From NCBI GenBank assembly GCA_029259155.1, contig JAPDJI010000001.1:8042-72041 (forward strand): 64,000 bases of DNA, in the 5' to 3' direction. Under the pieces are notes generated by a model. That model was given only the letters and a program-made list of their open reading frames with translations, was not told the origin of the DNA and ran no database searches. This stretch comes from Candidatus Methanomethylicia archaeon. Lineage in GTDB: Archaea > Thermoproteota > Methanomethylicia > Nezhaarchaeales > B40-G2. Positions 830 through 28,950 of this stretch are shown here, one piece after another (the first letter of the stretch is position 1; every line of letters starts with the position of its first letter). The position numbers and the translations under genes were made by a program.

Positions 830-1584
830 GGCATGTTCCTCCTAAGCTTATGATCTAGAAAGCTGGTTAATAGTAGTTTGAAGTATCCTACACCCATCCT
901 AGCTAACTTAAGCTTAGCTTCACCCCTTACCCTTCCTCTCCACCCTACGGGTACATCAGTGATCTTATAGCCTTTAAAATAAGCTTTTATGAGTAACTCA
1001 GCAGAGATGTCGAAGCCGTCAGAGACTGGATTAACCTCTGTGATGACCTGTCTTCTGTAGGCTTTGAAGGCGTTGGTTACATCAGCCGTCGGCGTACCAA
1101 GCAAGAGCCTAGAAATTTTGGAGAAACCCACGCTGAAGATCCTTTTAAGTAATGGCATACCCTGTGCCCATCCTCCTCTTCTCCACCTTGCGCCTACGGC
1201 TATGTCATAGCCTTCATAAGCCACTTTTCCGTATAGCTTCAATGCATCTTCAGGTATGTCCGAGAGGTCGCCCATGAAGGGGATTAGGATATCCCCTTCA
1301 GCTTCCTTAAACCCCTCCTTCAAAGCTTTCCCAAATCCAGGAGATCCTCTTCTATGTATGACCCTAACCCTATGGTATTTTGATGCCCACTCCTCAGCTA
1401 GATAACCTGTACGATCAGAGCTACAGTCATCCACAAGTAATACTTCAAAGTCGTCTTTAAAGTCTCGCAGAGCCTTCAATACCTCCTTCATTAACCTATC
1501 CAGATTCTCCTCCTCGTTGTGTAGTGGAATGATTAAGGATAGCTTCAAGGAGTAACACCCAGCTTCTCTAGGAAGCTTTCCCAC
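826..1584 (-). CDS. GT2 glycosyltransferase, dolichol-phosphate mannose/glucose synthase (Dpm1-like)
   Basis: SLIIPLHNEEENL and LLVDDCSSDRT (the DxD region typical of GT2). About 250 aa. Overlaps the downstream GT-C gene. Confidence 0.8.
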   Translation of the reverse strand: MGKLPREAGCYSLKLSLIIPLHNEEENLDRLMKEVLKALRDFKDDFEVLLVDDCSSDRTGYLAEEWASKYHRVRVIHRRGSPGFGKALKEGFKEAEGDILIPFMGDLSDIPEDALKLYGKVAYEGYDIAVGARWRRGGWAQGMPLLKRIFSVGFSKISRLLLGTPTADVTNAFKAYRRQVITEVNPVSDGFDISAELLIKAYFKGYKITDVPVGWRGRVRGEAKLKLARMGVGYFKLLLTSFLDHKLRRNMP

Positions 1585-2654: not shown

Positions 2655-2667
2655 GAGCCTTGTCCAC

Positions 2668-3720
2668 CTATGTCGGGAAAAGGTGTTTGTTTTCTTGGAC
2701 CCAGTTCGTTAGTTTAACTACGCCTTCCTTGGGATGTACTTTAGGTCTCCAGCCAAGTTTATTCGCAATTTTACTGATGTCGGAAATATAGACCTTCTGG
2801 TCTCCAGGCCTCCAGTCGCTGAAAGACACTTTAGCCTTGAGCCCTGTGATCTCCTCTAGTAACCTCAGCAGCTCTAATAATGATAAGGTGTTATGGGGAC
2901 CTCCCCCTATGTTAAAGACCTCATGGGTCAACTCACTCCTAAAGAATAAGTCGTAGGCTTCAATTAGATCCTTAACGTAAAGAACGTCCCTAACCTGCTT
3001 TCCGTCTCCATAAATAGTGATCTCTCTGCCGGTTAGCAAGGCTATGGTAAACCACGCTAGCCACCCTTGATCTTCGGCCCCCATCTGACGCTCCCCGTAT
3101 ATGCAGCTCATTCTGAAAACTCCTGTTTTGAGGCCGTAAACCCTTGCGTAGTCTTGGACGTAAAGTTCTCCGGCTAACTTTGAACATCCATATGGTGTAT
3201 GTTCGCAAAGATCTACTGGGTATTCTTCAGGTATGCCTTGTTGATAACGTGGATCTGCATAGACATACCTGCTGTCTCTCGGCTCTACAGGTATTTTGTT
3301 AACGTTATCTCCGTACACTTTATTGGTGGAGCAGTATATGATAGTAGGGTTGCTTTTAGCTCTCCTAGCAGCTTCCAATACGTTGAAGGTGCCTAGCGCG
3401 TTTATCTCAAAGTCTACCTTAGGGTCGAGGAGTGAAGTGGTGACGGCTACCTGAGCAGCGGTGTGGACTACAAGGTCTGCGTCTCTAACCTCTTTGGAAA
3501 GCTTCTCAAAGTCTCTAACGTCCCCTTCCACCAACCTAACTCTTTCACCAAATCTCTCCTTTAGGTATCTCCAGTTATGTAGAGAGGCTTCTCGGCTTTG
3601 TTTAAGTAGTGATGCTCGTAGGAAGTTGTCATAAACCACTACTTCATACCCCTTTTCAGCATAGAATTCTACTACGTGACTGCCAATGAAACCTGCTCCA
3701 CCAGTTACTAGAACTTTCAA
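2668..3720 (-). CDS. NAD-dependent epimerase/dehydratase (CDP-paratose/tyvelose epimerase-like)
   Basis: MKVLVTGGAGFIGSHVVEFY, YxxxK (YGCSK) and a C-terminal YGDGKQVRDVLYVKDL. Confidence 0.85.
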   Translation of the reverse strand: MKVLVTGGAGFIGSHVVEFYAEKGYEVVVYDNFLRASLLKQSREASLHNWRYLKERFGERVRLVEGDVRDFEKLSKEVRDADLVVHTAAQVAVTTSLLDPKVDFEINALGTFNVLEAARRAKSNPTIIYCSTNKVYGDNVNKIPVEPRDSRYVYADPRYQQGIPEEYPVDLCEHTPYGCSKLAGELYVQDYARVYGLKTGVFRMSCIYGERQMGAEDQGWLAWFTIALLTGREITIYGDGKQVRDVLYVKDLIEAYDLFFRSELTHEVFNIGGGPHNTLSLLELLRLLEEITGLKAKVSFSDWRPGDQKVYISDISKIANKLGWRPKVHPKEGVVKLTNWVQENKHLFPT

Positions 3721-3831
3721 TGCTAACAGCTCCTTGTGTTCTCTAGCGACTTTAAGCCTTCTATATCCAACCTATATTAGTCTTAACTCTACTAGGTAAA
3801 AGATTAGCCTTCATGGTTAGGGCGTAAGCCT

Positions 3832-4968
3832 TTAGCCCACTAAGCCTTTTTCTTCAAGCTCTCTCAAGCTCTTCTCGAAGAGGTCGAGAACTCCCCACTT
3901 TTCCTTTGAAGCCCAAGCCGCTAGCTCCTTGAGTCCTTCTTCGATTTCGATTGATGGTGTATAGCCTAAAAGCTCCTTAGCTATGGATATGTCGGCGTAA
4001 CAATGCCTTATATCTCCTTTCCTGAACCTGTTGGAGATGTATGGTTTAAGGTTTGATCCTAATGCCTTAGCTATGATTTCCGCCACCTTCTTTATCGAAG
4101 TAGGCTTACCTGTCCCTATGTTAACTGCTTTATAGTCAGCTCCACTACGTTCAATTGCTAGCAAGTTGGCTTTGGCTACGTCCTTAACGTGAACAAAATC
4201 CCTTAGCTGCTCTCCATCCTCAAAGAGGTATGGAGGTTTATTGTTGAGGATCCTGCTTGTGAAGATGGCGCAAGCACCTGTATATGGATTAGAAAGCGCT
4301 TGTCTTGGGCCGTAGACGTTAAAGTATCGTAATGCTACGGTGGGTATCCCGTAAGTTTTACCTATGAGGAGGCACATCTCTTCTTGATGGCGCTTGGTCT
4401 GCGCATAGATTGAAGTAGGTGACAAAGGTTTTTCTTCGTCGGTAGGCCTTGGCTTCAACTCAGAGCCACATGTGGGGCAAAGATGCTCCCAACGTCTCTC
4501 CTGAAGCTGTCTTAGATCCCTTAGCCCAGGATTAAGGTATCGGTTGCATTTTTCACAGAAGTACTTTCCCTCTCCATATATGCTCATAGAAGACGCTACT
4601 ACGAATTTCCTTACTCGGTTCTCAGTGTTTATGAGAACGTCAAGAAGAGTGGCTGTCCCTCTAGTGTTGTAGTCAACATACCTCTCAACCTGGTACATAG
4701 ACTGTCCTACACCCACAGCAGCCGCCAGGTGTATAATGGCATCTACGTCCCTCAAGTATTCTTGGAGAACTCTTCTATCTCTCACGTCACCTATTGTTAT
4801 CGAGGCCTTCGGGTTGAAGTAGCTGGGGAGTTTACCTCCATGAACCTGGCCTTCCAAGTTATCTACCACTATAACGTCGTACCCTTCCTCTAGGAAAAGG
4901 TCCACGGTGTAGCTACCGATGAAACCTGCTCCACCGGTTATCAATACTCTATCTATGCTTCTAGGCAT
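3832..4968 (-). CDS. NAD-dependent epimerase/dehydratase with an inserted Cys4 zinc-ribbon-like segment
   Basis: VLITGGAGFIGSY..., SMSIYG, YAQTK. Between the catalytic Ser and YxxxK lies CEKCNRYLNPG...LCPTCGSELKPRP (CxxC-x22-CxxC). Confidence 0.8.
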   Translation of the reverse strand: MPRSIDRVLITGGAGFIGSYTVDLFLEEGYDVIVVDNLEGQVHGGKLPSYFNPKASITIGDVRDRRVLQEYLRDVDAIIHLAAAVGVGQSMYQVERYVDYNTRGTATLLDVLINTENRVRKFVVASSMSIYGEGKYFCEKCNRYLNPGLRDLRQLQERRWEHLCPTCGSELKPRPTDEEKPLSPTSIYAQTKRHQEEMCLLIGKTYGIPTVALRYFNVYGPRQALSNPYTGACAIFTSRILNNKPPYLFEDGEQLRDFVHVKDVAKANLLAIERSGADYKAVNIGTGKPTSIKKVAEIIAKALGSNLKPYISNRFRKGDIRHCYADISIAKELLGYTPSIEIEEGLKELAAWASKEKWGVLDLFEKSLRELEEKGLVG

Positions 4969-5018
4969 AGTGAATCCCTTAACAGAGAAGCTGAAGTCTT
5001 ATTAAGCTGTGCGTATCA

Positions 5019-5405
5019 GTGAAGGGCTTGGCGGTGTTGTCGTTGTCTCCTCTAATATTCGCTCTCCTTTCTGTTCTGCTTGGAGCTTTAGGGCAGGTAT
5101 TATGGAAGTACGGCCTCTCTTTAATGGAGTTCAGCCCTGAGATGTTCTTCAACCTCAAAGGCTTAATTAAAATTGTAAGTAATGGGTGGATACCAGCAGG
5201 GATCCTATGCTACTTCTTTTCTATGACCCTCTGGCTCAAGGCGTTGAAAGAAGCGGAGCTAAGCTACGTCTACCCTTTAATTAGTCTAAATTTCGTAATA
5301 CTAACTGTGGTGGGGGTTTTACTTTTTCACGAAAATGTTACTTGGCTGCGGGTCTTAGGCATACTCTTGATAATCTCAGGGATAGTGATGGTGGCCCAAA
5401 GCTGA
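5019..5405 (+). CDS. small 4-TM membrane protein, SMR/EamA-like (ArnE/F-type flippase subunit candidate)
   Basis: 128 aa with four hydrophobic helices. Located in the glycosylation cluster next to aglH. Confidence 0.5.
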   Translation: MKGLAVLSLSPLIFALLSVLLGALGQVLWKYGLSLMEFSPEMFFNLKGLIKIVSNGWIPAGILCYFFSMTLWLKALKEAELSYVYPLISLNFVILTVVGVLLFHENVTWLRVLGILLIISGIVMVAQS

Positions 5406-5417
5406 GGTGTAGTAAAC

Positions 5418-6425
5418 ATGAATATTTTTGCTGCTGTCCTAGGTTTCCTATCTGCAAGTCTAGTAACTCTCTTCCTTACACCTTTCCTAATCAGAAAACA
5501 TTATGCCTTAGGGATCGTTGGAAGAGATGTACATAAACCTGGCAATCCAGTGGTCCCTGAAGTAGGTGGTCTGGCCATTGTTGTAGGGGTAACTATAGGC
5601 TCTATACTGGTGGCCCTAAACGTTACGACGTTGAGGGTTCATGTATTAGCTTTCCTCCTATCGTTCCTCTTCGCAGCCATGATAGGACTATACGATGACC
5701 TGCGTGGACTTAAAGCGAAGGTTAAAACTGCCCTCACTGTGATCTGCTGTACTCCCATAATTATAGGTTCACTGCTGGCACCCCACCTTATAACTTTAGG
5801 TAGGCCTGAACTACCCTTGGTAGGTCCTCTTCGTTTAACCATCATTTACTGGGTACTGCTACCCTTCGCTATCGCTGTTCCTGCTAATGCCGTTAACATG
5901 ATGGATGTATACAACGGTGTGATGCCTGGAACTTGTTTCTTCGCTACGTTGGCCTTGTTTCTCTCAGGTCTCCTTCTGGGGAGGTGGGAGGCCATTTACA
6001 TGTCTTCTCCTCTTTTAGGGGCCTTGGCTGCATATTACCTCTACAATAAATACCCAGCTCGGATTTTTTCAGGAGACACTGGAAGTTTAGCTGTGGGTGC
6101 ATCTATAGGAGCAATTGCTGTGCTCTCAGGCCTAGAGGTGGTTGGTATAGTTGCTCTCATGCCCCATATCATGAATGCTTTTCATAGCCTTACGAGCGTA
6201 AAGGGCCTCCTTGAGAGGCGTGAAATTGATCAACGGCCAACTATAGTACTCGGCGATCTGCTGGCAGCGAATCCTGATCCTAGAGCTCCCTTGACGTTAG
6301 CTAATATAATCCTCTCGAAGGGCCCGTTACCTGAGAAGGTCCTTATCAAGCTTTACATAGCCCTATCTGTTGTAGCTTGTGTGTTGGCTGTCCTAACAGC
6401 GTTATTAATGACCGTTAACATATAA
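5418..6425 (+). CDS. aglH: UDP-GlcNAc:dolichyl-phosphate GlcNAc-1-phosphate transferase (MraY/WecA/AglH family)
   Basis: Polytopic. Contains YDDLRGLKAKVK and VNMMDVYNGVMPG, the MraY/GPT family loops. About 335 aa. Confidence 0.8.
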   Translation: MNIFAAVLGFLSASLVTLFLTPFLIRKHYALGIVGRDVHKPGNPVVPEVGGLAIVVGVTIGSILVALNVTTLRVHVLAFLLSFLFAAMIGLYDDLRGLKAKVKTALTVICCTPIIIGSLLAPHLITLGRPELPLVGPLRLTIIYWVLLPFAIAVPANAVNMMDVYNGVMPGTCFFATLALFLSGLLLGRWEAIYMSSPLLGALAAYYLYNKYPARIFSGDTGSLAVGASIGAIAVLSGLEVVGIVALMPHIMNAFHSLTSVKGLLERREIDQRPTIVLGDLLAANPDPRAPLTLANIILSKGPLPEKVLIKLYIALSVVACVLAVLTALLMTVNI

Positions 6426-6459
6426 GAGACCTTAGTCTAAGCGGTAGAGGGCGAGAAAA

Positions 6460-6702
6460 TTGGATAGAATTGTCCCGCTCGCCCTCATCATGGTTGTGAT
6501 ATGGGTAGCCATGCTTTTGCTCTTCATAGTAATTCAAAGACTGATAGCCCCTATACCAGCCTTACCTCCATATCTAGGTGGGGCTTTCGCTACAGGCTTG
6601 ATCAAAGCAGTTTTATCTTTCTCCTTGGCTTTAGCCTGGCTTTACCTTTGGCATACTTTGGTCCAAGTTTACCGTAGACGTTCTTTGAGGAACAGGGCTT
6701 AA
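6460..6702 (+). CDS. small hydrophobic hypothetical protein
   Basis: 80 aa ORF with two predicted TM helices. No recognised family. Confidence 0.3.
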   Translation: MDRIVPLALIMVVIWVAMLLLFIVIQRLIAPIPALPPYLGGAFATGLIKAVLSFSLALAWLYLWHTLVQVYRRRSLRNRA

Positions 6703-7751
6703 CTGGCTTCCTCTATATGTTTAGCTATAACCTCGACGGGATCCTCCATGCTGGCTAAAGCTTTCCTCGCTCTCTTCTCTTGAGCTTTTCTTTCTATTCT
6801 TAAGTTACCAAGCACCTTTAGCCCTTCTTCGAGAGCCTCTTCGCTACTCCTAGCCTTACGTATCAATCCCAACTTAACCATGTACTTTTCGACATCGATA
6901 TCATCCACCGGAGTACATGAGATGGATGGGACGCCCATCAAGGCGGCCTCCCAGGTCATGGTTCCTCCTCCACCTATAAAGAGGCTTGTTTGTGGGAACA
7001 GCTTCAACGTGTCTATTACCTTGATTGGGACGAAGGCTACTCCTTTAAGCTTGCTTCGCAGTTCTTTGACCTGTTCGGGGTACCTAGCCAAGACCACTAT
7101 GTCTATTTCCTCACCTAGCTGTTCCTTTAGCCCTCTAGCCACCTTCTCCACCATCATCCTCCTCTCTTCCTTATTAAGGAGGTAGGACGCATAGATCTCC
7201 TCAGTCCTTATCACTACTAACTTCTTTCTTCTTCTGGTCTTTGAGGTTAGATCTTGATCCTTAAGCCAGGCAGCCGGATCGACAGCATTGTACTGAACTA
7301 TATCCTCGGAACGAGCTCCCAGCTTCGACCATTTCTCTATGGGAATACACTTTGGGGTGAAGAGCTTGGCTGAAAGAGGAATGGTCAGCTTAGCCACGGC
7401 TTCAGAGTGTGGACTATCATTAACACAGTAATGGGGTATTGCGAGACCATAAGCCACGCGTGCAGCTTCAGGGGAGCTGAAGGAGATCGCTATGTCAGGT
7501 CTCCAGTCCTTAACGACCTTTAATAGTCTTAGAGCTCTTTTGAGACTGGCTTGAAGTTTACCTGCGAGATCTGCTCCTCCATATTCTCCAACCACTATAG
7601 CGTCCATTCCCTTAGCCTTAAGCAGCTGTTCTACTTCTCTGTACTTCCTGGAGGTTTGAAGAACTTCATGGCCTTTTGCTTTGAGTATATCTATCAACCT
7701 ACCGAAGAATCGCACCTGTTTAGGTGTGTTCAAGTCTATCCAAACTCTCAA
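6699..7751 (-). CDS. DUF354-like GT-B fold protein (possible Agl24 / Alg13-Alg14 / MurG-like glycosyltransferase)
   Basis: N-terminal MRVWIDLNTPKQVRFF and a C-terminal Gly-rich loop GGGGTMTWEAALMGVPSI typical of GT-B C-domains. 350 aa. Adjacent to aglH. Confidence 0.45.
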   Translation of the reverse strand: MRVWIDLNTPKQVRFFGRLIDILKAKGHEVLQTSRKYREVEQLLKAKGMDAIVVGEYGGADLAGKLQASLKRALRLLKVVKDWRPDIAISFSSPEAARVAYGLAIPHYCVNDSPHSEAVAKLTIPLSAKLFTPKCIPIEKWSKLGARSEDIVQYNAVDPAAWLKDQDLTSKTRRRKKLVVIRTEEIYASYLLNKEERRMMVEKVARGLKEQLGEEIDIVVLARYPEQVKELRSKLKGVAFVPIKVIDTLKLFPQTSLFIGGGGTMTWEAALMGVPSISCTPVDDIDVEKYMVKLGLIRKARSSEEALEEGLKVLGNLRIERKAQEKRARKALASMEDPVEVIAKHIEEAS

Positions 7752-7901
7752 TTTATTACACCTTAGCTTGCATTAGCCTAAAGGTACCTAACCTTCCTTA
7801 TATGAAATTTTTACTCTAACCCTTGACGATGTAGACCTGCCGTAACACGCCCTTTGTTCACGTCTACTTCAAGAATTAATGGGCGTCCATGACGATCTAT
7901 C

Positions 7902-8429
7902 TTAAGGTCTGCCTTTGAAGAATCCTCGCTGCCTGTATAACGACAAAGCAATTAATAACGTCGCTACAACGAAGCCTTCGCTTGAAAGGACAACTCCTTC
8001 AGCCTCTACGAAAGGCGTGTAAGCCTCCACGGCCACTTTCTCTAAGAGCTTTAACGTAAAAGTAAGGGTAGGAATGCTAGATACATGTATATCTACCTGT
8101 ACCAGTAGCCAAAAGGAGTTAGGGTGAAGTGGCCAGAAGAGAGGTGTATAGCCGGTAAAGAAATCCAAGATTATATGTGAACAGTAGGCGGCAACCATAA
8201 TCAGTAATGTAGTACCCCTTACTTTCCTATTCCTTGAAAGTCCGTATAGGACTGGTATAGTAGCTAAAGGGAATATTAAGGAATGACTCATCGATCTATG
8301 TATATGTAGCAAGATATCGAGATCTGGCGTCGTGGATATTGCGGACGCCGCCAAGGAACGTTTAAGGTCTACTCCGAGCAGGGTAAGGGAGGTTAAAACC
8401 ACGGCGAAGTGAATAATGGGCTCAGGCAA
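7902..8429 (-). CDS. membrane-bound metal-dependent hydrolase-like protein (DUF457/YdjM-like)
   Basis: 175 aa, several TM segments and His-rich motifs (HIHRSMSHSLIFP, HIILDF). Confidence 0.4.
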   Translation of the reverse strand: MPEPIIHFAVVLTSLTLLGVDLKRSLAASAISTTPDLDILLHIHRSMSHSLIFPLATIPVLYGLSRNRKVRGTTLLIMVAAYCSHIILDFFTGYTPLFWPLHPNSFWLLVQVDIHVSSIPTLTFTLKLLEKVAVEAYTPFVEAEGVVLSSEGFVVATLLIALSLYRQRGFFKGRP

Positions 8430-8540
8430 CCATCATTACAGCTCAAACCTGACTCCGTAGAGGCTCCTCTATTTAAGACTTATTGAGGTTGGAAAGGCTT
8501 TTAACTTTAAGGACTCGTCGCTTTTGGTAGGGGTCCTCTA

Positions 8541-9923
8541 TTGCCTAAAATAATGGAAATGGATTCCTCTCAAGTGGCTGAGGCTGCAGCTCAAGGAGCC
8601 CTCTGCATAGCTGTCATAGGCTGCGGCTGGATGGGCTTACCTACAGCTCTGCTATTTGCTGAGACAGGAGCTAAAGTTATCGGGGTGGTGAAGTCTGAGG
8701 AAGAAGCATCTCTGCTTAATCAGGGAATCGCTACCGTAGCTGAGCCTGGCATAGAACCTCTCCTACGTAAACACGTGGAGAGCGGGAGGTTTAAGGTAAC
8801 TCTGGACGCTGCTAATGCGGCTTCTCAGGCTGATGCTATATTAATAATTGTGCCTACGCATGTGGGGAGGGGAAAGAAGCCTGACTACTCAGCCATTGTG
8901 GATGCTAGTAGGAACGTGGGCAGAGGGCTTATGAAAGGTAGCTTAGTGATCGTTGAGAGCACGGTTGGTCCAGGCGTAACGGAGGAGGTTGTTAAGTTTG
9001 AACTCGAAGAGGTTTCCGGCCTAAAAGCTGGCGTAGACTTCGGCTTAGCTTACAGTCCAATAAGGGCCAGCGCGGGAAGGGTCTTTAGAGACTTAACCTC
9101 TTATCCTAGGATTTTAGCGGGCTTTGATGAAAGAAGCTTTCATGCAGCCTCTTCTCTACTAAGCTTGATTGTGAAGGGAGGTATAATTAAGGTGAGGGAC
9201 ATTAAAACAGCAGAGGCAGTGAAGCTGTTCGAGAACATTTACCGAGATGTAAATATTGCCTTAGCCAATCAATTAGCGCTTTTCTGCGAAGCTGCGGGGA
9301 TTGACGTGGTGGAGGCCATTAATGCCGCCAATACCCAACCCTTCTGTCACTTACATAGGCCTGGAATGGGTGTTGGAGGTCACTGTCTCCCTTCTAACCC
9401 ATACTTCTTGCTGGAGAAGGCTAGGAAGCTTAAAGTAAACTTAGACCTTGTTCGGGCTGCAAGGAGAATCAACGATAGCATGCCCTTCCACACCATCAAG
9501 CTAATAACCGCTGCTCTGCGAAGCTGCGGTAAAACCTTGAAGGGCTCTCATGTGGCTATATTGGGAGTTTCCTTTAAGGAGGACGTTAAGGAACATCGAT
9601 ATTCGCCTTCCATTTACGTGGCGGAGAGGCTTATGAGGAGGGGTGTGAAGATCTCTATTTATGATCCTTTCTTCACACCTGAGGAACTTAGCGTACCGGG
9701 GGTGAGGATAGCCCCTACCCTAGAATCATGTGTAGAAGGTGTGGACTGCATACTTTTGGCGGTGGCTCACGAGAAATTTAAGTCATTAGATCTTAATCTA
9801 TTGGCTAAGCTCGTCAAAATGCCAGCAGCTTTGGTGGATGGCCGTCAAGTAATAGACCCTGTAAAGGCTAGGGAAGCAGGCTTTGTCTATGCAGGGATAG
9901 GGAGGGGCTTGGTTGTTGCGTAG
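8541..9923 (+). CDS. nucleotide-sugar dehydrogenase (UDP-glucose/UDP-ManNAc/GlcNAc 6-dehydrogenase family)
   Basis: N-terminal Rossmann IAVIGCGWMGLPTALLFAETGAKVIGV, a catalytic Cys region GGHCLPSNPYFL and a C-terminal UDP-binding domain. Confidence 0.85.
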   Translation: MPKIMEMDSSQVAEAAAQGALCIAVIGCGWMGLPTALLFAETGAKVIGVVKSEEEASLLNQGIATVAEPGIEPLLRKHVESGRFKVTLDAANAASQADAILIIVPTHVGRGKKPDYSAIVDASRNVGRGLMKGSLVIVESTVGPGVTEEVVKFELEEVSGLKAGVDFGLAYSPIRASAGRVFRDLTSYPRILAGFDERSFHAASSLLSLIVKGGIIKVRDIKTAEAVKLFENIYRDVNIALANQLALFCEAAGIDVVEAINAANTQPFCHLHRPGMGVGGHCLPSNPYFLLEKARKLKVNLDLVRAARRINDSMPFHTIKLITAALRSCGKTLKGSHVAILGVSFKEDVKEHRYSPSIYVAERLMRRGVKISIYDPFFTPEELSVPGVRIAPTLESCVEGVDCILLAVAHEKFKSLDLNLLAKLVKMPAALVDGRQVIDPVKAREAGFVYAGIGRGLVVA

Positions 9924-21310: not shown

Positions 21311-22117
21311 ATGTTTGAAATCCTCCTCCCCAAGGAAATGAAACCTAACACCATGGTAGAGGTCTACCTCCTTGTTGAACCTTTTATAAGAGCTAGGTGG
21401 CCTTTCCACTATGGTCTTACTAAGAAGAGGCCGACGTCTGCTCTAGAATACATGGCTGGAGGTATACCTACCAGTCATGGATGCTTAGTTCTTTGGTACT
21501 TAGGTCTGGATTGGCCTCTTTTCTTTAGAGAAGCATCAGATAAGCTTGATGGGTACGTATTGGATGAGCTCAAAGAACTGATAGCTAAAGGTAACTACAT
21601 GAAGGCTAGGAGGCTGTTACATAGACTAGACAGGTCTAAATTAAAGTCCATTCTCCTAGCTCGCAAAGGTTTAGTAAAGCACCTCGAATATGAATTGATT
21701 TTATCTATCCCCATACCAACGGAGGTAGAGGGGGTAGACGTAGAGCTAGAGATTTCTTCCATGGCTCGGTCTTTGGGGTCTCTTCTAGATTTTCGTAGGA
21801 GGGTTGTTGAGGGTAAGTCTCCATTCCTCGACGTTGAGTTACTTAAATGGCGCGTACCTATGGCTGATCCGTTAGAGATCTATGGTATCTATGAAGAGTT
21901 TTCCGGCGACGTAGAGGAGGTACTAAAGCTTGCTGTGAGCGAGCTGCTAGCAATAATACATGAAAGTATGAGTAGACCAGCATACATAGCGATAGTTAGA
22001 GGAGATGTTAACGCGGAGCGGACGTTAAGCGACTTTGAAGCTGAGTTAAGCAGGGAATTATCACCTATTGTGCGTTATGTTAACCCTTCTTCCATCTTCG
22101 CCACTTTAGTCTCGTAG
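21311..22117 (+). CDS. conserved hypothetical protein
   Basis: 268 aa ORF directly downstream of purM. No recognisable motif. Confidence 0.4.
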   Translation: MFEILLPKEMKPNTMVEVYLLVEPFIRARWPFHYGLTKKRPTSALEYMAGGIPTSHGCLVLWYLGLDWPLFFREASDKLDGYVLDELKELIAKGNYMKARRLLHRLDRSKLKSILLARKGLVKHLEYELILSIPIPTEVEGVDVELEISSMARSLGSLLDFRRRVVEGKSPFLDVELLKWRVPMADPLEIYGIYEEFSGDVEEVLKLAVSELLAIIHESMSRPAYIAIVRGDVNAERTLSDFEAELSRELSPIVRYVNPSSIFATLVS

Positions 22118-22154: not shown

Positions 22155-22811
22155 ATGTATGAAAGGGTTAGACTAGCTATGACCAAGTTCCTTGGTATAT
22201 TTAGAGAACTTCCCGAGGAGGAGGAGCTGGTCTTTACACCTAAATCATCGGTTCCTACCCTCTTCGCTAGGGAGATGGAAATAAGGAAGCTGATGGGAGT
22301 TGAACGTAAAGAACAGCCTCTCATATATGCTGTGGCGTACCCATACCTAACTGACAAGCGCTTAATAATCCTCGCTCTCCACCAAGTGGAGTCTAAGACC
22401 CTAACTGAACGTAAAGCTCCGAGGATGGCTGCTAGGTCAGGTGCATGGCTGGATATCCCCCTTAGTTCAATAAGTGTGGCTGAGCTTAGATCAATAGAGG
22501 TTAAGAAAGACCGAGATCTTTCAGGTTTTCTAGACTGGAGCGGTTTCAGAGAGGCACTTGTCGAACGTTCACCTGCGATAGAGGTTATCTACGACGAGAA
22601 GCAGGCCTCAGGCAAAGTAAAAGATTACATTGATCTAGTCGCTGAAATGGGCTTCATAGTTAAGGACCCTAGGAAAGTGGAGCGCTCATACGATAAAGTA
22701 TTCTTAATAGGGGAAATGATGGTTGAAGACTTCTTACCATTACTTAAGGAACAGCTTGAGAAGACCTTAGAGATCAGGGAGAGCTCTGAAAGCGAGGAGG
22801 CTCTAGCTTAA
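22155..22811 (+). CDS. conserved hypothetical protein
   Basis: 218 aa ORF with an acidic C-terminus. No recognisable motif. Confidence 0.4.
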   Translation: MYERVRLAMTKFLGIFRELPEEEELVFTPKSSVPTLFAREMEIRKLMGVERKEQPLIYAVAYPYLTDKRLIILALHQVESKTLTERKAPRMAARSGAWLDIPLSSISVAELRSIEVKKDRDLSGFLDWSGFREALVERSPAIEVIYDEKQASGKVKDYIDLVAEMGFIVKDPRKVERSYDKVFLIGEMMVEDFLPLLKEQLEKTLEIRESSESEEALA

Positions 22812-23493
22812 CGGGTATAGGCTCTGTTACATTAACCTCCCCCTCCTTCAATACTACTTTATAGGCTAGTGGCTTAACCCCAGCTCTGAAAGCTTCTTTT
22901 AAGGCCTCGGCGAAGCCAGGGTCAACTTCATAATTAGGCCTCAGCTCTCCAGCTTCACACCTAGCCACTAGGAACAGTACATATCCTTCATATCTGTCCT
23001 TCACTGCCTTCGCTAACTCTTTTAGGTGTCTTTTCCCCCTAAAGGTAGGGGCATCTGGAAATAGGGCTATCTCTCCTACAGATAGAGTGCATCCTTTAAC
23101 TTCAACTAAAGCCTCTACGCCTTCAGCTGACTTTAAGAGGAGGTCTAGGCGGCCATCACCATATTTAATTTCCTTTCTCACCACTTCGTAACCTCTAAGC
23201 TCCCTGACCACTCCTCTTCTAATGGCCTCTTCAGCTAGCTTGACGTGAAGTGCTGAATCAACCAACACCCAGCAGTTGTTAGTCAATGTAGCCACCATGT
23301 ATAGCTCAGTCTTACGGCTACGCCCTATGTGAGGCCTAACCAATACCGTAGCTCCTCTAACCAGTAGCTCGGTGAGCCTCCCTGGATCATGTACGTGGAC
23401 GGTCTTTACCTTACCGTCGACCTCAACGTAGGCCCTAAACCGCCCTTCTCTCCTAATAAACCGCCCTTCCATTAAAGGATGAGAAATTTTCAC
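22774..23493 (-). CDS. sfsA: sugar fermentation stimulation protein homolog (SfsA, nuclease-fold DNA-binding protein)
   Basis: Colinear with E. coli SfsA: RREGRFRAYVEVDGKVKTVHVHDPGRL and LVEVKGCTL...FPDAPTFRGKRHLKEL. Confidence 0.7.
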   Translation of the reverse strand: MKISHPLMEGRFIRREGRFRAYVEVDGKVKTVHVHDPGRLTELLVRGATVLVRPHIGRSRKTELYMVATLTNNCWVLVDSALHVKLAEEAIRRGVVRELRGYEVVRKEIKYGDGRLDLLLKSAEGVEALVEVKGCTLSVGEIALFPDAPTFRGKRHLKELAKAVKDRYEGYVLFLVARCEAGELRPNYEVDPGFAEALKEAFRAGVKPLAYKVVLKEGEVNVTEPIPVKLEPPRFQSSP

Positions 23494-24227
23494 ATATGCT
23501 CCCTCAAAAGGAACCTTGCTACCTCAAAGGGTATGAACGCCGCTAATAGGAACCATGCCAAGTAGTAGAGGAAGCCAACGATGAAGACTATGAAGAAACT
23601 ATGTCCTTCGACTTGGAAGGGAGCCATTAACGCCATGACAAGGGTGAGGGTCAAGCAAAAAGCTACCACGTCCCTCCTTTCAACCTTCATGAATTTTTCT
23701 GAGCTTATCACCCCGAAGAGAAGACCTGAAATCAGCACTAAGATCCTAACGTCAAGCCATGGCGCATAGGGCCTAACGAGAATAAAGATTATTCCTAGCG
23801 TTACCCCTATGAAGGCTGGGGCCTTGATCATGGTTTTAATAACCATCTCTAGGCTTGATGCTTCCTTAACCTTAACCTTAAGCTGCACCTTGTCAGGCAA
23901 GCTTCGGTAGAGCTCATCTTTCGACCCCCTTCCCTCCATGAGGTCTATGCAGGCTTTGGCTAGCTCCGTAGCTTCATAGACATACTTTCGATTCACCTTT
24001 CTTCTACTAAGAAGGCCTGTTTCTAAGAGTTCCTCTAAGTGCTCATCTACCGTGCTTCTGGCTTTACTAACTCTCTCTGCTAACTCGCCTGCTGTGGCTG
24101 AGCCTTCTTCTATAAGGGATTTAGCGATGCGATACCTAGTTTCATCGCTGAGCGCTACAATAGCTCTCCTAACCAGCTCGCCTTTGCTCCTCTCCACGGA
24201 GCTCCCTTCCATGATAACTCCCCTCAA
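23490..24227 (-). CDS. ArsR/TrmB-like winged-helix regulator with C-terminal transmembrane domain
   Basis: The N-terminal wHTH is VALSDETRYRIAKSLIEEGSATAGELAERV...LEELLETGLLSRRKV. The C-terminal ~90 aa form 3-4 hydrophobic helices. Confidence 0.6.
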   Translation of the reverse strand: MRGVIMEGSSVERSKGELVRRAIVALSDETRYRIAKSLIEEGSATAGELAERVSKARSTVDEHLEELLETGLLSRRKVNRKYVYEATELAKACIDLMEGRGSKDELYRSLPDKVQLKVKVKEASSLEMVIKTMIKAPAFIGVTLGIIFILVRPYAPWLDVRILVLISGLLFGVISSEKFMKVERRDVVAFCLTLTLVMALMAPFQVEGHSFFIVFIVGFLYYLAWFLLAAFIPFEVARFLLREHM

Positions 24228-24248
24228 CTCATAGGAAAAATCTTTCGG

Positions 24249-24260
24249 CTCCGGCCGGAG
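24249..24260. promoter_or_regulatory. perfect 12-bp GC-rich palindrome CTCCGGCCGGAG upstream of the ArsR-like gene (candidate operator)
   Basis: Seen directly in the sequence. Lies 22-33 nt upstream of the minus-strand start codon at 24227, with further CCGGCC copies nearby. Confidence 0.3.
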
Positions 24261-24386
24261 TTTAGCCTCACTTAAGCCAAGTGCTTTTTCCGGCCTAAAT
24301 CGTCAGTTCAGCTCCGGTGTAGACCTTAACAAAGTTTAACCTCGAGCCTTGCGCCACGCCTCCTCGACGCGCTTGGAGGGAGCTGG

Positions 24387-25070
24387 TTGAGGAGGAGCGT
24401 AGTTGTCAAGGTGGTTAAGGATAAAGGGTTGTTGGGACAGGCCTTAGCGCTACTAATCCTAGCTTTACTTATAACGATGATCCCAAGCCTCATAGCTCTA
24501 CTGGTATTGCTCATAGCGTACAGGGTTATCAAAGCATTAAGGCTAAGGAGGAAAAACGTAGGCTTCAAGGCTTTGAAGCTAAAGAATAGATGGCCTATCT
24601 TCACCGGGAGGATTAAGTCAAATGGGCTTAAGAAGGTGGGAAGTTTAGGTGGATGTGGGCTCTACGTACCGGAAGGAGGATCTACATGTCTACTTTGCTT
24701 AAATGGCTTCACTTTGACTGGTAGTGGTTACCTATCTCTTAAGCCGTTAGAGCCCTTCTCTATCGATGTTAAGCCTCTCATGCACGCTGCCTTAAAAATG
24801 AGGAGACAGCTAGTTGTAGCGTTCATCGTAGATCCTGGTCGTTATGGTCCTTTAAAGGTCAAAGTAGCTACTTTGGTCGTGGTTAGGGCGGTAAGGAGGT
24901 GTTTAACGGTCGATGAAAGCCAAGTAGAGTCTCTCGTAAACGAGGTCGAACGCTGTCTTGATGGGGTAAGGGCGGTCCTGATGTCTCAGCCTTACCATCT
25001 AGAACTTGATGTCCTAAGCGGTGACGACCTCATCAACGCCAACCTGCTCTTGGTGGGGGGCTATGCGTAG
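24387..25070 (+). CDS. hypothetical membrane-anchored protein with Cys cluster
   Basis: N-terminal TM helix (LALLILALLITMIPSLIALLVLLIAY) followed by GGCGLYVPEGGSTCLLCLNGF. No recognised family. Confidence 0.35.
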   Translation: MRRSVVVKVVKDKGLLGQALALLILALLITMIPSLIALLVLLIAYRVIKALRLRRKNVGFKALKLKNRWPIFTGRIKSNGLKKVGSLGGCGLYVPEGGSTCLLCLNGFTLTGSGYLSLKPLEPFSIDVKPLMHAALKMRRQLVVAFIVDPGRYGPLKVKVATLVVVRAVRRCLTVDESQVESLVNEVERCLDGVRAVLMSQPYHLELDVLSGDDLINANLLLVGGYA

Positions 25071-26484
25071 GGACATTTATGAAGGTTCTGACGTGTTTTC
25101 GCCCTTCATTCCCACTCCTCTACCACCAATAGAGGGGGTGAGGGGCGAGTTATTCCATATAGGCGATGTTAGAGGGGAGGATGGATGGCAGCCTTTCCTC
25201 GTGGACCTTAGAGACCTTAAGTTCATCATCCTTGCGGGCCCTAAGAAAGCCAGGGTTTCCATAGGAGCTTCCTTATTGTTCAAAGAGTTCTTGGCGAGTA
25301 TAGGGTTCACGGTGCTGGATACTGGAAGAGGTTACCGAACACTGTTCAAGGCTCTCCCGAGAGCTAAGCTATATAGGCTTGGCCTCGACTCTACATTAAA
25401 TCCTTTCTCGATACCTGAAACTTGGAGAGAGTTTGAGGCTTACAGCTACGCATCGTTGGTTTCGAAGAGCTATGCTATATGCTTCAACCTTACGAGGATC
25501 CATGCTTCATTGATGTGTCGGGCTCTATGCAAGCTATATGCCGAGAAATCCAATCCCACATTATTGGAGGTAATACAGGCTGTTGAGGGTGAAGTGGAGC
25601 CTCTAGCTAGGCTTCAAGGCTTTGCTGAAGAGTTGAAGTCGCTGTTGGCCTCCATGCAGGAAGGCTATGTAGGTGCCTGCCTACTAGGCGTAGAGGAGGT
25701 ACCTTCACCTTCGGAGTTGGAGGAAGCGTGCATAGTGGAGCTTAGTTATCTACCTACCTCTGAGCTTAGGGCGTTTATCCAGGCCTGCTTCATGGCCAAG
25801 CTCTCCATTACAGCTAGGCTGAAAGGTTTAATGAGTCAATATACCTTGCTTATCGAGGATGCTCAGCACCTCTTCCAGGAGACTAGGGGATGGAAGTTGG
25901 AAGAACTTATCTCAAATATGTTAGATGCTGGCTTAAACCTACATTTAAGCACCCCTAGCGCAGCAGCCTTACCCTCTACTTTGAGAGGAGAAGGCATTAT
26001 CATACTAGAGGCTTTGGAGGGGGGCTTAGCTCACTTGGTTAAAGTTTCAACTTCTCGCGGGAAAATGGAAGCTAAATTAAGCACCTACTCATGGTTGGAG
26101 GATGACCTCACAGATTGTGACGTAGACCTCCTCGTGGAGTCGAGGACGGGAGTAAAGCCTAGAAGAGTTGGAGCTCCACGTAGACGTAGCTTAACGACTC
26201 TTGAGGAACTTTTCTTAAAGGAAGAAGTCAGAGCTGAAGCCTATAACATTCTATCTTACCTGAGAGATAACTACTCGACGTTTAAAGGCCTCTTCGAGCT
26301 CATGAACTTGCCTAAGGAGCTTGCTAGGAAGACCCTCATTAAGCTTTATCGAAATAAACTCATCGCCCAGAGCGAGGTGGGAGGAGTCAAGGTAGTTACG
26401 CTGACTGATCTTGGTAGGCTAGTACTTGAAGAGTATGAAAGCTCTCTGGAAGGTGAAGGAATTGATGGAGGTAAGGTGGCTTAG
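25063..26484 (+). CDS. hypothetical protein with degenerate P-loop-like segment and C-terminal winged helix (ORF track start 25021)
   Basis: FIILAGPKKARVSIGASLL resembles a Walker A context but lacks GK[ST]. LLIEDAQHL is Walker B-like. The C-terminus LARKTLIKLYRNKLIAQSEVGGVKVVTLTDLGRLVL is wHTH-like. ATG 25063 overlaps the upstream stop by 8 nt. Confidence 0.4.
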   Translation: MRRDIYEGSDVFSPFIPTPLPPIEGVRGELFHIGDVRGEDGWQPFLVDLRDLKFIILAGPKKARVSIGASLLFKEFLASIGFTVLDTGRGYRTLFKALPRAKLYRLGLDSTLNPFSIPETWREFEAYSYASLVSKSYAICFNLTRIHASLMCRALCKLYAEKSNPTLLEVIQAVEGEVEPLARLQGFAEELKSLLASMQEGYVGACLLGVEEVPSPSELEEACIVELSYLPTSELRAFIQACFMAKLSITARLKGLMSQYTLLIEDAQHLFQETRGWKLEELISNMLDAGLNLHLSTPSAAALPSTLRGEGIIILEALEGGLAHLVKVSTSRGKMEAKLSTYSWLEDDLTDCDVDLLVESRTGVKPRRVGAPRRRSLTTLEELFLKEEVRAEAYNILSYLRDNYSTFKGLFELMNLPKELARKTLIKLYRNKLIAQSEVGGVKVVTLTDLGRLVLEEYESSLEGEGIDGGKVA

Positions 26485-26764
26485 CGGAAGTAGCTGCGAA
26501 TGGTTGGTAAAGAGGCTAGGCTCATCTTTCATCTTTGTTAGGCTCGAGGTGGCTGATAAAGATGGCTCACCTTTACTTCGCCGAAGCCTCTTATTGAAGG
26601 GGAAGCGCGGTCGTGTGAAGCTAGTTTTCACGGAGGAGTACGAGCTGGAGGATGCGTTAAAGACGCTTAGGGCTCAAGGCCTCCTTGTCGGCAGGTTAAG
26701 GCTACGCTCCTCCAGGCCTCCTTCCAAGCTCATTCCTGAAAACCTGAAAGGGGGTGGTGGATAA
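26426..26764 (+). CDS. small basic hypothetical protein (alternative start at MEVRWL, 26465)
   Basis: 112 aa ORF overlapping the preceding gene and ending exactly at the radA start. Confidence 0.3.
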   Translation: MKSMKALWKVKELMEVRWLSGSSCEWLVKRLGSSFIFVRLEVADKDGSPLLRRSLLLKGKRGRVKLVFTEEYELEDALKTLRAQGLLVGRLRLRSSRPPSKLIPENLKGGGG

Positions 26765-27723
26765 TGAAAGAATTAACCCTAAAGGATATCACCGGTATAG
26801 GGGAGAAGACCGCTAAGAAGCTAGAGAAGGCTGGAGTTACTTCGCCTAGGCAACTAGCGTTAATGACAGCATCTGAGCTGGCAGCGCTAGCTGATATAGG
26901 CGAGGCTCACGCCCTGGCCATAACTGAAGCCGCTAGGAGGGAGCTTGAAAAAGTGCTGGGCATAGGTGTGGTGAAGGCTAAAGAACACTACGAACAGTTG
27001 CTGAGACAGCGAAAGCTCACCACTGGATGTAGTGGTCTCGACACCATTCTCGATGGAGGGTTAGAGCCCGCCGCTATAACAGAGTTCGTTGGAGTTTTCG
27101 GTAGTGGCAAGTCTCAGCTCATGCACCAGCTATGCGTAACAGTTCAGCTGCCTGAAGAACAGGGTGGTTTACGTGGAAGGGCCTTCTACTTAGATACCGA
27201 GCGAGGTTTCTCGCCCAAGAGGCTGATAACCATAGCGTCAAGGTTCGGCCTGAACCCTGACGAAGTATTGGATAACGTCTTCAGCGTCTACGTAGTCAAC
27301 TCGGACCACCAAGTAGTGCTTCTCGATGAAGTTGAGAGGCTTGTTAGCAATGAAGGAGTGAAGTTGGTGGTTGTGGACAGCTTCACCTCGCATTTTAGGA
27401 AGGAATATCCTGGAAGGGACCACTTAGCGGAAAGGCAGCAGAGGCTCAACAGGTATTTGGGGCAACTCATGAGGATAGCGGTGACCTACAATGCAGTGGT
27501 AGCGGTTACTAACCAGGTAATGTCTTCACCTGATCCGAGGGATCCTCAAGAGAAGGCTGTAGGGGGCCATATCATGGGTCACGGGACCACCCACCGCATA
27601 TGGTTCTGGAAACGTAAGGGACGTAAGAGACTAGCGCGCGTCATCGACTCTCCGAGACTTCCTGAAGCAGAGGCATGGTTTGAGATTCAGGATGGAGGTC
27701 TTTATGACGCTGAGCCGGAATAG
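26764..27723 (+). CDS. radA: DNA repair and recombination protein RadA (RecA/Rad51 family)
   Basis: The N-terminal HhH is ITGIGEKTAKKLEKAGV. Walker A GVFGSGKSQL, Walker B LVVVDS. 319 aa. Confidence 0.9.
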   Translation: MKELTLKDITGIGEKTAKKLEKAGVTSPRQLALMTASELAALADIGEAHALAITEAARRELEKVLGIGVVKAKEHYEQLLRQRKLTTGCSGLDTILDGGLEPAAITEFVGVFGSGKSQLMHQLCVTVQLPEEQGGLRGRAFYLDTERGFSPKRLITIASRFGLNPDEVLDNVFSVYVVNSDHQVVLLDEVERLVSNEGVKLVVVDSFTSHFRKEYPGRDHLAERQQRLNRYLGQLMRIAVTYNAVVAVTNQVMSSPDPRDPQEKAVGGHIMGHGTTHRIWFWKRKGRKRLARVIDSPRLPEAEAWFEIQDGGLYDAEPE

Positions 27724-28030
27724 TGCTGAGCAGCTTTCTTGGGCGTTAACTAAGCTTAAGTCTAGGTTTACGGGTAAAAGCGAGTCTTGGGTACGTCGAT
27801 GCCTTAAGAGGCTCAGAGACGTAGAGGAAATAGAAGTCGGTACTTGGAGGGTTAAGGGAAGATTTGAGCTCGGCGACCGTTATCCCAATTACCTCGTCAA
27901 GGTAGTGAACGGTAGATACCAGTGCTCCTGCCATGATCCTCATAAGCCTTACTCTAGGTTTCGTAGGAGGTCGGTGTGCAGCCACATAGGTGCTGTCATA
28001 CTTTACAGGGCTTTGAGGAAGCTAAGGTGA
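27680..28030 (+). CDS. SWIM zinc-finger protein (start may be at Met 27704)
   Basis: C-terminal YQCSCHDPHKPYSRFRRRSVCSHIGAVIL matches the SWIM CxCxnCxH pattern. Overlaps the radA 3' end. Confidence 0.65.
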   Translation: MRFRMEVFMTLSRNSAEQLSWALTKLKSRFTGKSESWVRRCLKRLRDVEEIEVGTWRVKGRFELGDRYPNYLVKVVNGRYQCSCHDPHKPYSRFRRRSVCSHIGAVILYRALRKLR

Positions 28031-28572
28031 AGGATTTGAGCTACGAGAAGCTCCAACAGATAGTAAAGGGAGGCTTGACGGCTCTGGTTTACGGTGGAAG
28101 TGCGCTTGAGAGGATCGAGTACCTCATGGAGGTGGCTAAGCTAGCCTTAAAGGAGGGCTCCTTCGCCCTCTACTTCTCTATCTATGAAGGATCCACGTTC
28201 CTCATAGTGGATGTCGCCTCGAGAAAGGGGTTGGAGAATTTACTCGACAAGATCTACGTTGCTATACTACCTCTAGATGTCGCGAAGCTTGGAAAGGTTA
28301 TCGAAGCTCTCCGGGGCTTATTGAACGAGGAGAAGTTAACTCTAATCGTCTACGACCAGGTCTTTACAGCCATTTATTACACGTCGCTGGGCGATCCTGA
28401 GGTCAAGAGTAGGCTTAACACCTTGCTGTCAATGGTTAAGGCTCTTTCAAGGAAACATGGATTCTGCACCTTACTGCTAGACAGGGCTAAGGTGGATGGT
28501 TCTCCTCGAACTCCTCGTTTTATTTTAAGGTATGTAGACGAAAGCGTATCTTTACGCTCAGTCAACGTTTAG
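27976..28572 (+). CDS. degenerate RecA/RadB/KaiC-fold paralog, Walker A lost (alternative start at GTG 28027)
   Basis: IVKGGLTALVYGGSALERIEYLMEVAKLAL sits at the Walker A position without GKT/S. LTLIVYDQVF is Walker B-like. About 180 aa. Confidence 0.5.
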   Translation: MQPHRCCHTLQGFEEAKVKDLSYEKLQQIVKGGLTALVYGGSALERIEYLMEVAKLALKEGSFALYFSIYEGSTFLIVDVASRKGLENLLDKIYVAILPLDVAKLGKVIEALRGLLNEEKLTLIVYDQVFTAIYYTSLGDPEVKSRLNTLLSMVKALSRKHGFCTLLLDRAKVDGSPRTPRFILRYVDESVSLRSVNV

Positions 28573-28950
28573 GGAGGAGGGCTTGGTTTCCATAAGTATG
28601 TTTTTTTCCTCCGTAAATGAAGGGGCACATATACACCAGAACTTGAGCTCCCTATTGCCATTATTCACGGCATAGTGAACAGCTCCTTTAGGTATCAATA
28701 CACAGTCTCCACGTGCAACTTTAAAGATCTCGCCGTCCACGTATACCTCTCCTTTCCCTTCAATGACTAGGTAGAGCTCCACGAAGTCGTGGTGGTGGCT
28801 TAAAGTGGCTTCACCTGGCTTAACGGTAGCTAGAGCTAAGCTGACCTCATAAGTGTTGGTCGGCCTAATACCTATGAGTTCTATTACTTCAGCCCCATCG
28901 GGAGCTTTCACTCTTAGCCCTTTGCGAAGGTTTCTCTTAACAGGCTTCAA
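28558..28950 (-). CDS. cupin domain protein
   Basis: LSHHHDFVELYLVIEGKGEVYVDGEIF is a cupin_2 motif. 130 aa. Confidence 0.7.
   Translation of the reverse strand: MKPVKRNLRKGLRVKAPDGAEVIELIGIRPTNTYEVSLALATVKPGEATLSHHHDFVELYLVIEGKGEVYVDGEIFKVARGDCVLIPKGAVHYAVNNGNRELKFWCICAPSFTEEKNILMETKPSSLNVD

Follow-up and report, generated by a model that had tools for sequence, protein, structure and literature searches.

The 64,000-nucleotide stretch of DNA analyzed here (the window), from a Candidatus Methanomethylicia archaeon of the order Nezhaarchaeales, carries three overlapping open reading frames, ORF1 to ORF3 (24387–26764, + strand), directly upstream of the recombinase gene radA. The central one, ORF2, descends from a ring ATPase of the HerA clade (HerA/VirB4-type, FtsK-HerA superfamily) and has lost its catalytic apparatus. 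An earlier note, made from the sequence alone, had called the module unannotatable. For ORF2 this is wrong, as both profile and fold comparisons establish its homology to HerA/DUF87 proteins. From homology and gene context, we tentatively favor the reading that ORF1–ORF3 form a membrane-tethered, ATPase-dead, HerA-derived complex that serves, with RadA and its paralogs, as an accessory factor in recombination. The genes themselves are real, since each has homologs outside the source genome in several deeply diverged archaeal lineages. The novelty lies in a HerA-clade family that is catalytically dead, bears a winged helix, comes with an obligatory membrane partner as well as a small basic one, and is tied to a recombinase gene. 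No description of a radA-linked HerA-like module was found in the literature searched.

Fold, homology and degeneration of ORF2

ORF2 (ATG 25063 to 26484, + strand, 473 residues) is composed, as judged from its fold and profiles, of a degenerate HerA-clade RecA-fold core, a MarR-like winged helix and a tail of glycine and acidic residues. On its own, the sequence gave nothing significant in Pfam, NCBIfam, PHROGs or PADLOC. A word-indexed search of 5.8 billion proteins returned only five close relatives, aligned as A1, and a related-locus search of the GTDB species representatives with the close-clade alignment gave two loci. The family is defined mainly by an exhaustive HMMER search with A1, which retrieved 42 proteins at E ≤ 1e-3. 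These comprise close orthologs or fragments (P0002, P0006–P0011), distant proteins of the same length and layout (P0012–15, 18–21, 23, 25–27, 29, 30 and 33–41), and ATPases of the typical DUF87/HerA type, whose GxxGxGK[ST] and hhIEEAH motifs are intact (P0016, 17, 22, 28, 31, 32 and 42–46). About 25 cluster representatives combine a dead P-loop with the winged helix. The close-clade profile matched nothing among the PDB sequences, whereas the profile broadened to 25 sequences matched HerA chains (8j4u, 2.8e-9; 9x1l, 4.7e-9; 4d2i, 1e-4) and VirB4 (4.5e-6). Aligned with hhalign against the intact DUF87/HerA-type relatives, the ORF2 profile reached a probability of 100% (E 3e-45) over 448 columns, and Pfam DUF87 itself matches 5 of the 25 family members.

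The predicted structure leads to the same group of proteins. The AlphaFold 2 (AF2) model of ORF2 has a predicted local distance difference test score (pLDDT) of 76 and a predicted template modeling score of 0.70. Its Foldseek matches in the PDB include the type IV coupling protein (T4CP) DotL (6e-9), HerA (4d2i, 6e-8) and VirB4 (4ag5, 9e-8), together with chains of the R388 type IV secretion system (T4SS), TrwB and DndH, over an E range of 6e-9 to 1e-5. The best target-normalized TM-score was 0.63, to VirB4 (4ag5). No full HAS-barrel is evident in the model, which has only two short N-terminal strands. ORF2 thus resembles HerA of the HerA–NurA system (DUF87) in its RecA-like core and in sequence (4d2i, 9x1l and the HerA of SIR2-HerA), and both are archaeal and genomically tied to homologous recombination. 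It differs in lacking the Walker A lysine and glycines and the conserved arginine and glutamine, in the loss of the Walker B pair from most family members, and in its C-terminal MarR-like winged helix and separate or fused membrane anchor. In addition, no nurA, mre11 or rad50 lies within ~5 kb on either side of the module.

The motif losses can be followed position by position. Residues 54–66 of ORF2 (FIILAGPKKARVS; 25222–25260, + strand) were aligned on NLAIFGRSGAGKT of an active relative, and GPKKARVS falls, column for column, on the Walker A GRSGAGKT of the intact proteins. The Walker A-like loop without GK[ST] seen in the earlier note is therefore placed where it was proposed. The loop is one residue shorter and glycines have been lost; G59 occupies the position of the first Walker A glycine, and R64 that of the catalytic lysine. 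The loop is degenerate across the whole family, with G59 as its sole invariant residue in the 25-sequence alignment, and R64 is invariant only in a nine-sequence alignment of Nezhaarchaeales and Methanomethylicota. LLIEDAQHL (residues 262–270; 25846–25872, + strand), aligned on LVLIIEEAHHVL of an active relative, is the remnant of Walker B. Its I-E-D-A-Q lies on the IEEAH columns of the intact relatives (LLIEDAQ on LIIEEAH), so that its description as Walker B-like holds, while its distance from the loop is ~205 residues and not the ~220 previously given. Across the 25 sequences the acidic pair is variable (VEGFD, LLSNS, ILFDS, LIELQ). An arginine and a glutamine that are invariant in the active set (R330 and Q341, P0017 numbering), probably the arginine finger and sensor, fall in the ORF2 family on positions that are not conserved (LDAGLNLHLSTPS versus CREIGISMIIVDQHP). 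Because the loss of catalytic motifs is family-wide, spanning Thermoproteota and Asgard groups, it is old and maintained, and ORF2 is no recent pseudogene.

The C-terminus of ORF2 is a MarR-like winged helix-turn-helix (wHTH), predicted to bind DNA. The domain spans residues ~377–463 (26191–26451, + strand) and is followed by the tail SLEGEGIDGGKVA. In the AF2 model it is made up of helices 387–402, 407–413 and 418–430, a β-hairpin at 434–447 and a last helix at 449–463. This pattern, together with matches of the C-terminal part of the family profile to MarR structures (2rdp, 7.9e-6; 3f3x, 1e-4; others to 1e-3), bears out the winged helix suggested earlier. Several family members match Pfam wHTH families (HTH_24 at 6e-7, MarR_2, PadR). 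The wHTH of the window ORF2 alone gave weak matches, to DUF6293_C (E 0.03) and, in PADLOC, to the N-terminus of MkoB (7e-4).

A C-terminal wHTH of the MarR/PadR/ArsR type also invites a different view of ORF2, mainly as a transcription factor. Its wHTH would bind the promoter of the operon, and the dead ATPase domain, as a sensor or oligomerization module, would tune the expression of radA, for instance in response to DNA damage. ORF2 does lie in one unit with radA, its would-be target, and the promoter region contains a conserved motif (described below). Moreover, the only source record among the ORF1 and ORF2 homologs that reads other than 'hypothetical protein' is an NCBI entry for a member of the ORF2 family, named 'winged helix-turn-helix domain-containing protein'. 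We nevertheless consider a mainly regulatory role quite improbable. The divergent ArsR-type gene already supplies a dedicated regulator, one that is conserved together with the module, and a HerA core of ~370 residues kept across phyla, with an obligatory membrane partner, would be unusual for a simple regulator. The active relatives also carry the wHTH behind a working motor domain, from which it follows that the wHTH predates the loss of catalysis.

Those active relatives, intact DUF87–wHTH proteins (P0017, P0022, P0031, P0042–44 and similar), are the nearest to ORF2, with homology that spans both the ATPase core and the wHTH. They differ in retaining GRSGAGKT and IEEAH, and no ORF1 or ORF3 partners accompany those that were examined. 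From motifs of the D...E.E.K type, they appear to end in an additional domain resembling a PD-(D/E)xK nuclease. FtsK, too, has a motor domain ahead of a DNA-binding winged helix, the γ domain, at its C-terminus. ORF2 shares with FtsK the superfamily, this domain order and membrane anchoring. FtsK, however, actively translocates DNA and carries a polytopic N-terminal domain on the motor chain itself, while the wHTH of ORF2 matches MarR-type regulators and may not be homologous to the γ domain. The module also has no link to Xer/dif.

Probable partners of ORF2 and linkage to radA

ORF1 (TTG 24387 to TAG 25070, + strand, 227 residues) is made up, according to hydropathy and homologs, of an N-terminal hydrophobic anchor and an α/β domain of ~170 residues. 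The single long hydrophobic segment, residues ~12–54, has basic flanks on both sides. The earlier description of a transmembrane, cysteine-bearing protein is correct as to the anchor and the five cysteines; four of these are invariant only in the Nezhaarchaeales clade and not in distant homologs, and a cysteine metal site was rejected for this reason. Neither ORF1 nor its distant homologs matched Pfam, NCBIfam, PHROG or PADLOC entries, nor did the profile match PDB sequences. The AF2 model was poor (pLDDT 49), and Foldseek gave nothing below 1e-3, only generic ferredoxin-like α/β folds. An equivalence of ORF1 with the N-terminal domain found in the active membrane-bound relatives was also dropped, as the ORF1 family profile had no match there at E < 1.

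An ORF1 homolog lies 5′ of the ORF2 homolog in L001–L004 (Nezhaarchaeales), L005 (Baldrarchaeia), L006/7 (Methanomethylicota), L008/9, L011 and L013. The only stand-alone loci without ORF1 in that position, L010 and L014, have a larger membrane protein there instead. P0041 and P0035 are fusions in which an ORF1-like region precedes an ORF2-like domain in one chain, as supported by the match of L005_277 to the P0041 N-terminus (1.7e-24) and of the ORF1 hidden Markov model (HMM) to P0041 and P0035 (~1e-50). Such fusions suggest a physical interaction between ORF1 and ORF2. N-terminal hydrophobic segments were found in every ORF1-like protein and in every long fused form (P0018, P0021, P0035 and P0041). 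They are absent from stand-alone ORF2-like proteins, of which three of the seven scanned show one internal hydrophobic stretch at residues ~240–268. Since the anchor resides in ORF1 or in the fused chain and is missing from stand-alone ORF2, membrane anchoring appears to be a constant property of the system.

ORF3 (ATG 26465 to TAA 26762–26764, + strand) encodes the small basic protein described earlier, of 99 residues and with an isoelectric point of 10.5. Its homologs lie between the ORF2 homolog and radA in L001, L002, L004, L011 and L013, and after the ORF2 homolog in L008. An HMM built from the close clade detects those of L013 (2e-20), L008 (5e-14) and L011 (2e-4), so that the gene turns up again in three deep lineages; L003 and L006/7 lack it. 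No matches to ORF3 or its distant homologs were found in Pfam, NCBIfam, PHROGs or PADLOC, or with the profile in the PDB; none of the three ORF families has a functional annotation in the first four of these libraries. Short glycine-rich, often acidic ends are found in ORF2 (26452–26484), ORF3 (26740–26764) and many homologs, such as ...EEYESSLEGEGIDGGKVA, ...LKGGGG and ...EESVGGGGCGE, and recall partner-recruiting tails. Where ORF3 has been lost in L003, a 70-nucleotide spacer (3649–3719) follows ORF2, and radA is called there with a nine-residue N-terminal extension (MYRLEGGGK...) that is like the glycine-rich ends of ORF3 and ORF2.

The three genes are closely packed. ORF1 and ORF2 overlap by 8 nucleotides and ORF2 and ORF3 by 20, both as noted earlier; the alternative ORF3 start at TTG 26426, which would give a 59-nucleotide overlap, is unsupported because homologs start at MEV[RK]W. 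The module ends, as had been said, at the radA start codon, with the last base of the ORF3 stop serving as the first base of the radA ATG (26764). Each of the six genes from ORF1 to a RadB-like gene, including radA and a SWIM-type gene, overlaps or abuts the next. In archaea, oligo-T tracts serve as transcription terminators, and on the + strand no run of at least five T occurs from 24286 to 28600, where ~3.7 were expected from mononucleotide shuffles of 24228–28700. A T7 tract at 28601–28607 (+ strand), 29 nucleotides past the final stop codon, is the likely terminator of the six-gene unit. Together, the overlaps and the lack of oligo-T before the end of the last gene fit a single six-gene transcription unit, and co-transcription of ORF1–ORF3 with the recombination genes, as proposed in the earlier note, is plausible from the sequence.

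Linkage to radA recurs well beyond the source genome. The closest relatives of the module genes are in metagenome-assembled genomes of Candidatus Nezhaarchaeales/Nezhaarchaeota, and the named carriers of the ORF2 family are Nezhaarchaeales, Methanomethylicota (Verstraetearchaeota), a 'Thermoprotei archaeon', Bathyarchaeia, and the Asgard groups Baldrarchaeia and Freyrarchaeia. Of the eight distinct genomic contexts, seven have the module adjoining radA or a RadA paralog, amid unrelated flanking genes. The order ORF1-ORF2-(ORF3)-radA-SWIM-RadB-like is found at all five Nezhaarchaeales loci (the window and L001–L004). The whole neighborhood is syntenic there (purine genes, SfsA, ArsR, module, radA, SWIM and RadB-like). 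These five prove little by themselves, and the distant members are more informative. In Methanomethylicota (L006/7), ORF1-ORF2-radA-SWIM-RadB-like is flanked by formate dehydrogenase and aminotransferase genes. L011 has ORF1-ORF2-ORF3-radA, L013 has the same string with a divergent ArsR gene in front of it, and L008 is arranged like L013 as far as its contig extends. RadA of the window is 51% identical to that of L013, 49% to that of L006 and 45% to that of L011. With RadA identities of only 45–51% and unrelated flanks, the linkage has outlasted deep divergence and wholesale rearrangement of the flanking genes.

Other contexts vary this arrangement. In L010, a 1000-residue membrane protein is followed by a dead ORF2-type protein and then by a RadA paralog with intact Walker A; L014 likewise has a membrane protein, ORF2 and a RadA paralog with intact Walker A. 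The large L010 protein (1381–4383) has a polytopic N-terminus, an intact HerA-like ATPase (GASRTGKS, ILEEAH) and a wHTH-like C-terminal end, and may form an active/inactive paralog pair with the dead ORF2 beside it. In the baldrarchaeial L005, seven overlapping genes form one string (2574–9602), consisting of a RadB-like ATPase, a membrane protein, a Ski2/Hel308-type helicase (DEAD, Helicase_C and archaeal helicase domain 4), two small membrane proteins and, at the end, ORF1-like and ORF2-like genes.

The L010 arrangement, with a dead protein directly after a polytopic protein that has an intact HerA-like ATPase, bears on a further explanation. The module could be the structural, non-motor part of a DNA-uptake or exchange apparatus related to Ced/Ted or to T4SSs, in which the dead ring docks at the membrane, takes incoming DNA and passes it to RadA, while a separate ATPase supplies the energy. 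The obligatory anchor is consistent with this, as are the best structural matches, which include T4CPs and VirB4 (6sz9, 8rtd, 4ag5 and 1gl7), like ORF2 membrane-associated. There is also a precedent that ties HerA-clade ATPases to recombination: the Sulfolobales import DNA for homologous recombination by means of two cooperating VirB4-like ATPases of the HerA clade, CedB and CedD, and Ted loci co-localize with herA and rad50 (PMC9905601, PMC11868833, PMC11823120). By their descriptions, CedB and CedD are likewise VirB4/HerA-like proteins linked to the recombination of imported DNA, acting as two cooperating paralogs (PMC9905601, PMC11868833, PMC11823120). ORF2, however, is predicted not to be an active motor. 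The 64-kb window contains no other HerA-like gene, and within it no polytopic CedA/VirB6-like channel or VirB2-like pilin gene (components per PMC9905601) lies near the module. ORF1 itself has one hydrophobic segment only, and the failure of its family profile to match the N-termini of the active membrane-bound relatives is a further point against this explanation, which we regard as rather unlikely.

The neighborhood also bears on the suggestion, made in the earlier note as an alternative, of a defense-type module. An anti-virus or mobile-element system built on a HerA-like protein would be comparable to Sir2-HerA, DUF4297-HerA, DndFGH or TdpAB, and HerA proteins of defense systems are indeed among the sequence and fold matches. 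The MkoB match in PADLOC is weak and limited to the wHTH, and PADLOC has nothing for ORF1 or ORF3. The module has no effector gene (nuclease, Sir2 or similar), and the ATPase that such systems require is dead. Housekeeping synteny with purine genes and radA is common to five genomes, the GC content of the locus is unremarkable, and there were no PHROG matches. No integrase or tRNA gene was seen among the ORFs within ~5 kb on each side, a survey that included no dedicated tRNA scan. A defense function is thus unsupported and, in our view, very improbable. A virus or mobile-element origin was separately rejected, as BFVD gave matches only to generic HerA and conjugation ATPases.

Proposed function

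Homology and recurrent radA linkage support the earlier suggestion of pseudo-ATPase recombination accessory factors, and the following scheme is our tentative proposal for how such a complex would work. ORF1 would anchor ORF2 at the cytoplasmic face of the membrane as an oligomer, probably ring-shaped as in its relatives. With its winged helix, ORF2 would grip duplex DNA but not pump it, and the small, basic ORF3 would serve as an adaptor. The complex may then position DNA for RadA or modulate assembly of the RadA filament, by analogy with the ATPase-defective Rad51 paralogs of eukaryotes. Translational coupling would provide matched amounts of the proteins, and the divergent membrane-bound ArsR-type regulator would control the unit. 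A more specific version is possible, though we think it less likely than not: an ancient RadA partner system in which a former HerA/VirB4-type DNA translocase, now a DNA-binding ring anchored in the membrane and lacking a motor, would link membrane-associated DNA physically to the formation of RadA filaments, whether that DNA is imported or belongs to a tethered stretch of the chromosome.

A possible functional analogy is with the mediators among Rad51/RadA paralogs, such as the eukaryotic Shu complex and archaeal RadB, where RecA-superfamily folds that have lost catalysis aid the recombinase. ORF2 differs in belonging to the HerA clade and not to the Rad51/RadA family. To our knowledge, archaea have few known RadA accessory factors (mainly RadB, aRadC-type paralogs and SSB), and none is known to be membrane-associated. 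The module offers three candidate RadA partners, in addition to the SWIM/Rad51-paralog-like pair across radA. The linkage is deep and reaches the Asgard archaea, which makes the loading and positioning of archaeal and, by extension, early eukaryote-like recombinases more directly testable. For the biology of pseudo-enzymes, ORF2 represents a ring translocase kept for hundreds of millions of years after the loss of its catalytic motifs and, if the more specific, membrane-coupling version holds, a new class of recombination mediator made from a dead pump.

Several observations weigh against a recombination accessory role. The fusion locus L012 has no RecA-family gene within its 8-kb contig. Nezhaarchaeales and Methanomethylicota are related, and part of the radA linkage may be inherited and not independently selected. 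Within the unit, radA may have its own internal promoter. ORF3, being missing from the close genome L003 and from L006/7, is dispensable.

Neighboring genes

Downstream of the module, radA (26764–27723, + strand) encodes a bona fide recombinase of 319 residues with an intact Walker A, GVFGSGKS. It scores 372 bits against the NCBIfam RadA equivalog NF003301 (cut-off 259) and matches Pfam Rad51 (1.4e-77) and HHH_5. The overlapping string of genes continues with a small SWIM-type zinc-finger protein (27680–28030, + strand) of up to 116 residues, with an uncertain start. Its Pfam SWIM match is weak (E 0.16), and the SWIM-type CxC...CxH pattern is kept in the window, L001–L004 and L006/7.

The last gene of the unit (27976–28572, + strand) encodes a RadB-like RecA-fold paralog of up to 198 residues, with a start probably near 28027 and an NCBIfam RadB match at 4e-4. 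The earlier note had considered this RecA-fold protein inactive, and it does lack G....GK[ST]; YGGSALERIEY aligns where the Methanomethylicota ortholog has YGEAGSGKTT. Walker A has been lost in the Nezhaarchaeales clade, while Methanomethylicota (L006, 10478–11384) keep GEAGSGKT. The pairing of a SWIM protein with an ATPase-defective Rad51 paralog (27680–28572) recalls the eukaryotic Shu complex, which consists of Shu2/SWS1 and Rad51 paralogs. We found no archaeal counterpart of the Shu complex described in the literature searched.

Upstream, and divergent from ORF1, lies a gene for an ArsR/SmtB-type winged-helix regulator of 245 residues with a C-terminal multi-pass hydrophobic region (23490–24227, − strand). 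It matches Pfam HTH_20 (9e-10) and HTH_5 (1.5e-8) and NCBIfam ArsR/SmtB (3e-12), and its hydrophobic segments follow residue ~129. Orthologous genes, likewise combining a wHTH with transmembrane segments, lie divergently upstream of the ORF1 homolog in the Nezhaarchaeales loci, in L008/L013 and in L011, that is, in three lineages. The protein is probably the regulator of the ORF1–radA operon; a membrane-anchored repressor opposite a radA operon is unusual. Between the two genes, CCTTAACAAAGTTTAACC (24324–24341, + strand), ~45–60 nucleotides 5′ of the ORF1 start, is the sole conserved block in an alignment of five ArsR/ORF1 intergenic regions (the window and L001–L004), with the consensus CCTTnACAAAGCTTAAC. 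A promoter or operator function is probable for this block.

The end of the ArsR-type gene overlaps by 4 nucleotides the nuclease gene sfsA (22774–23493, − strand; TIGR00230, 2.9e-58). The divergent unit thus couples a membrane regulator with the DNA/RNA nuclease SfsA, a pairing kept in L001–L004 and not in L008/L013. Between purM and sfsA are two ORFs on the + strand, at 21311–22117 (268 residues) and 22155–22811 (218 residues), with no library match. Matched by size and position only, counterparts of both are present in L002 (262 and 216 residues), and of one in each of L001 (208 residues) and L004 (209 residues).

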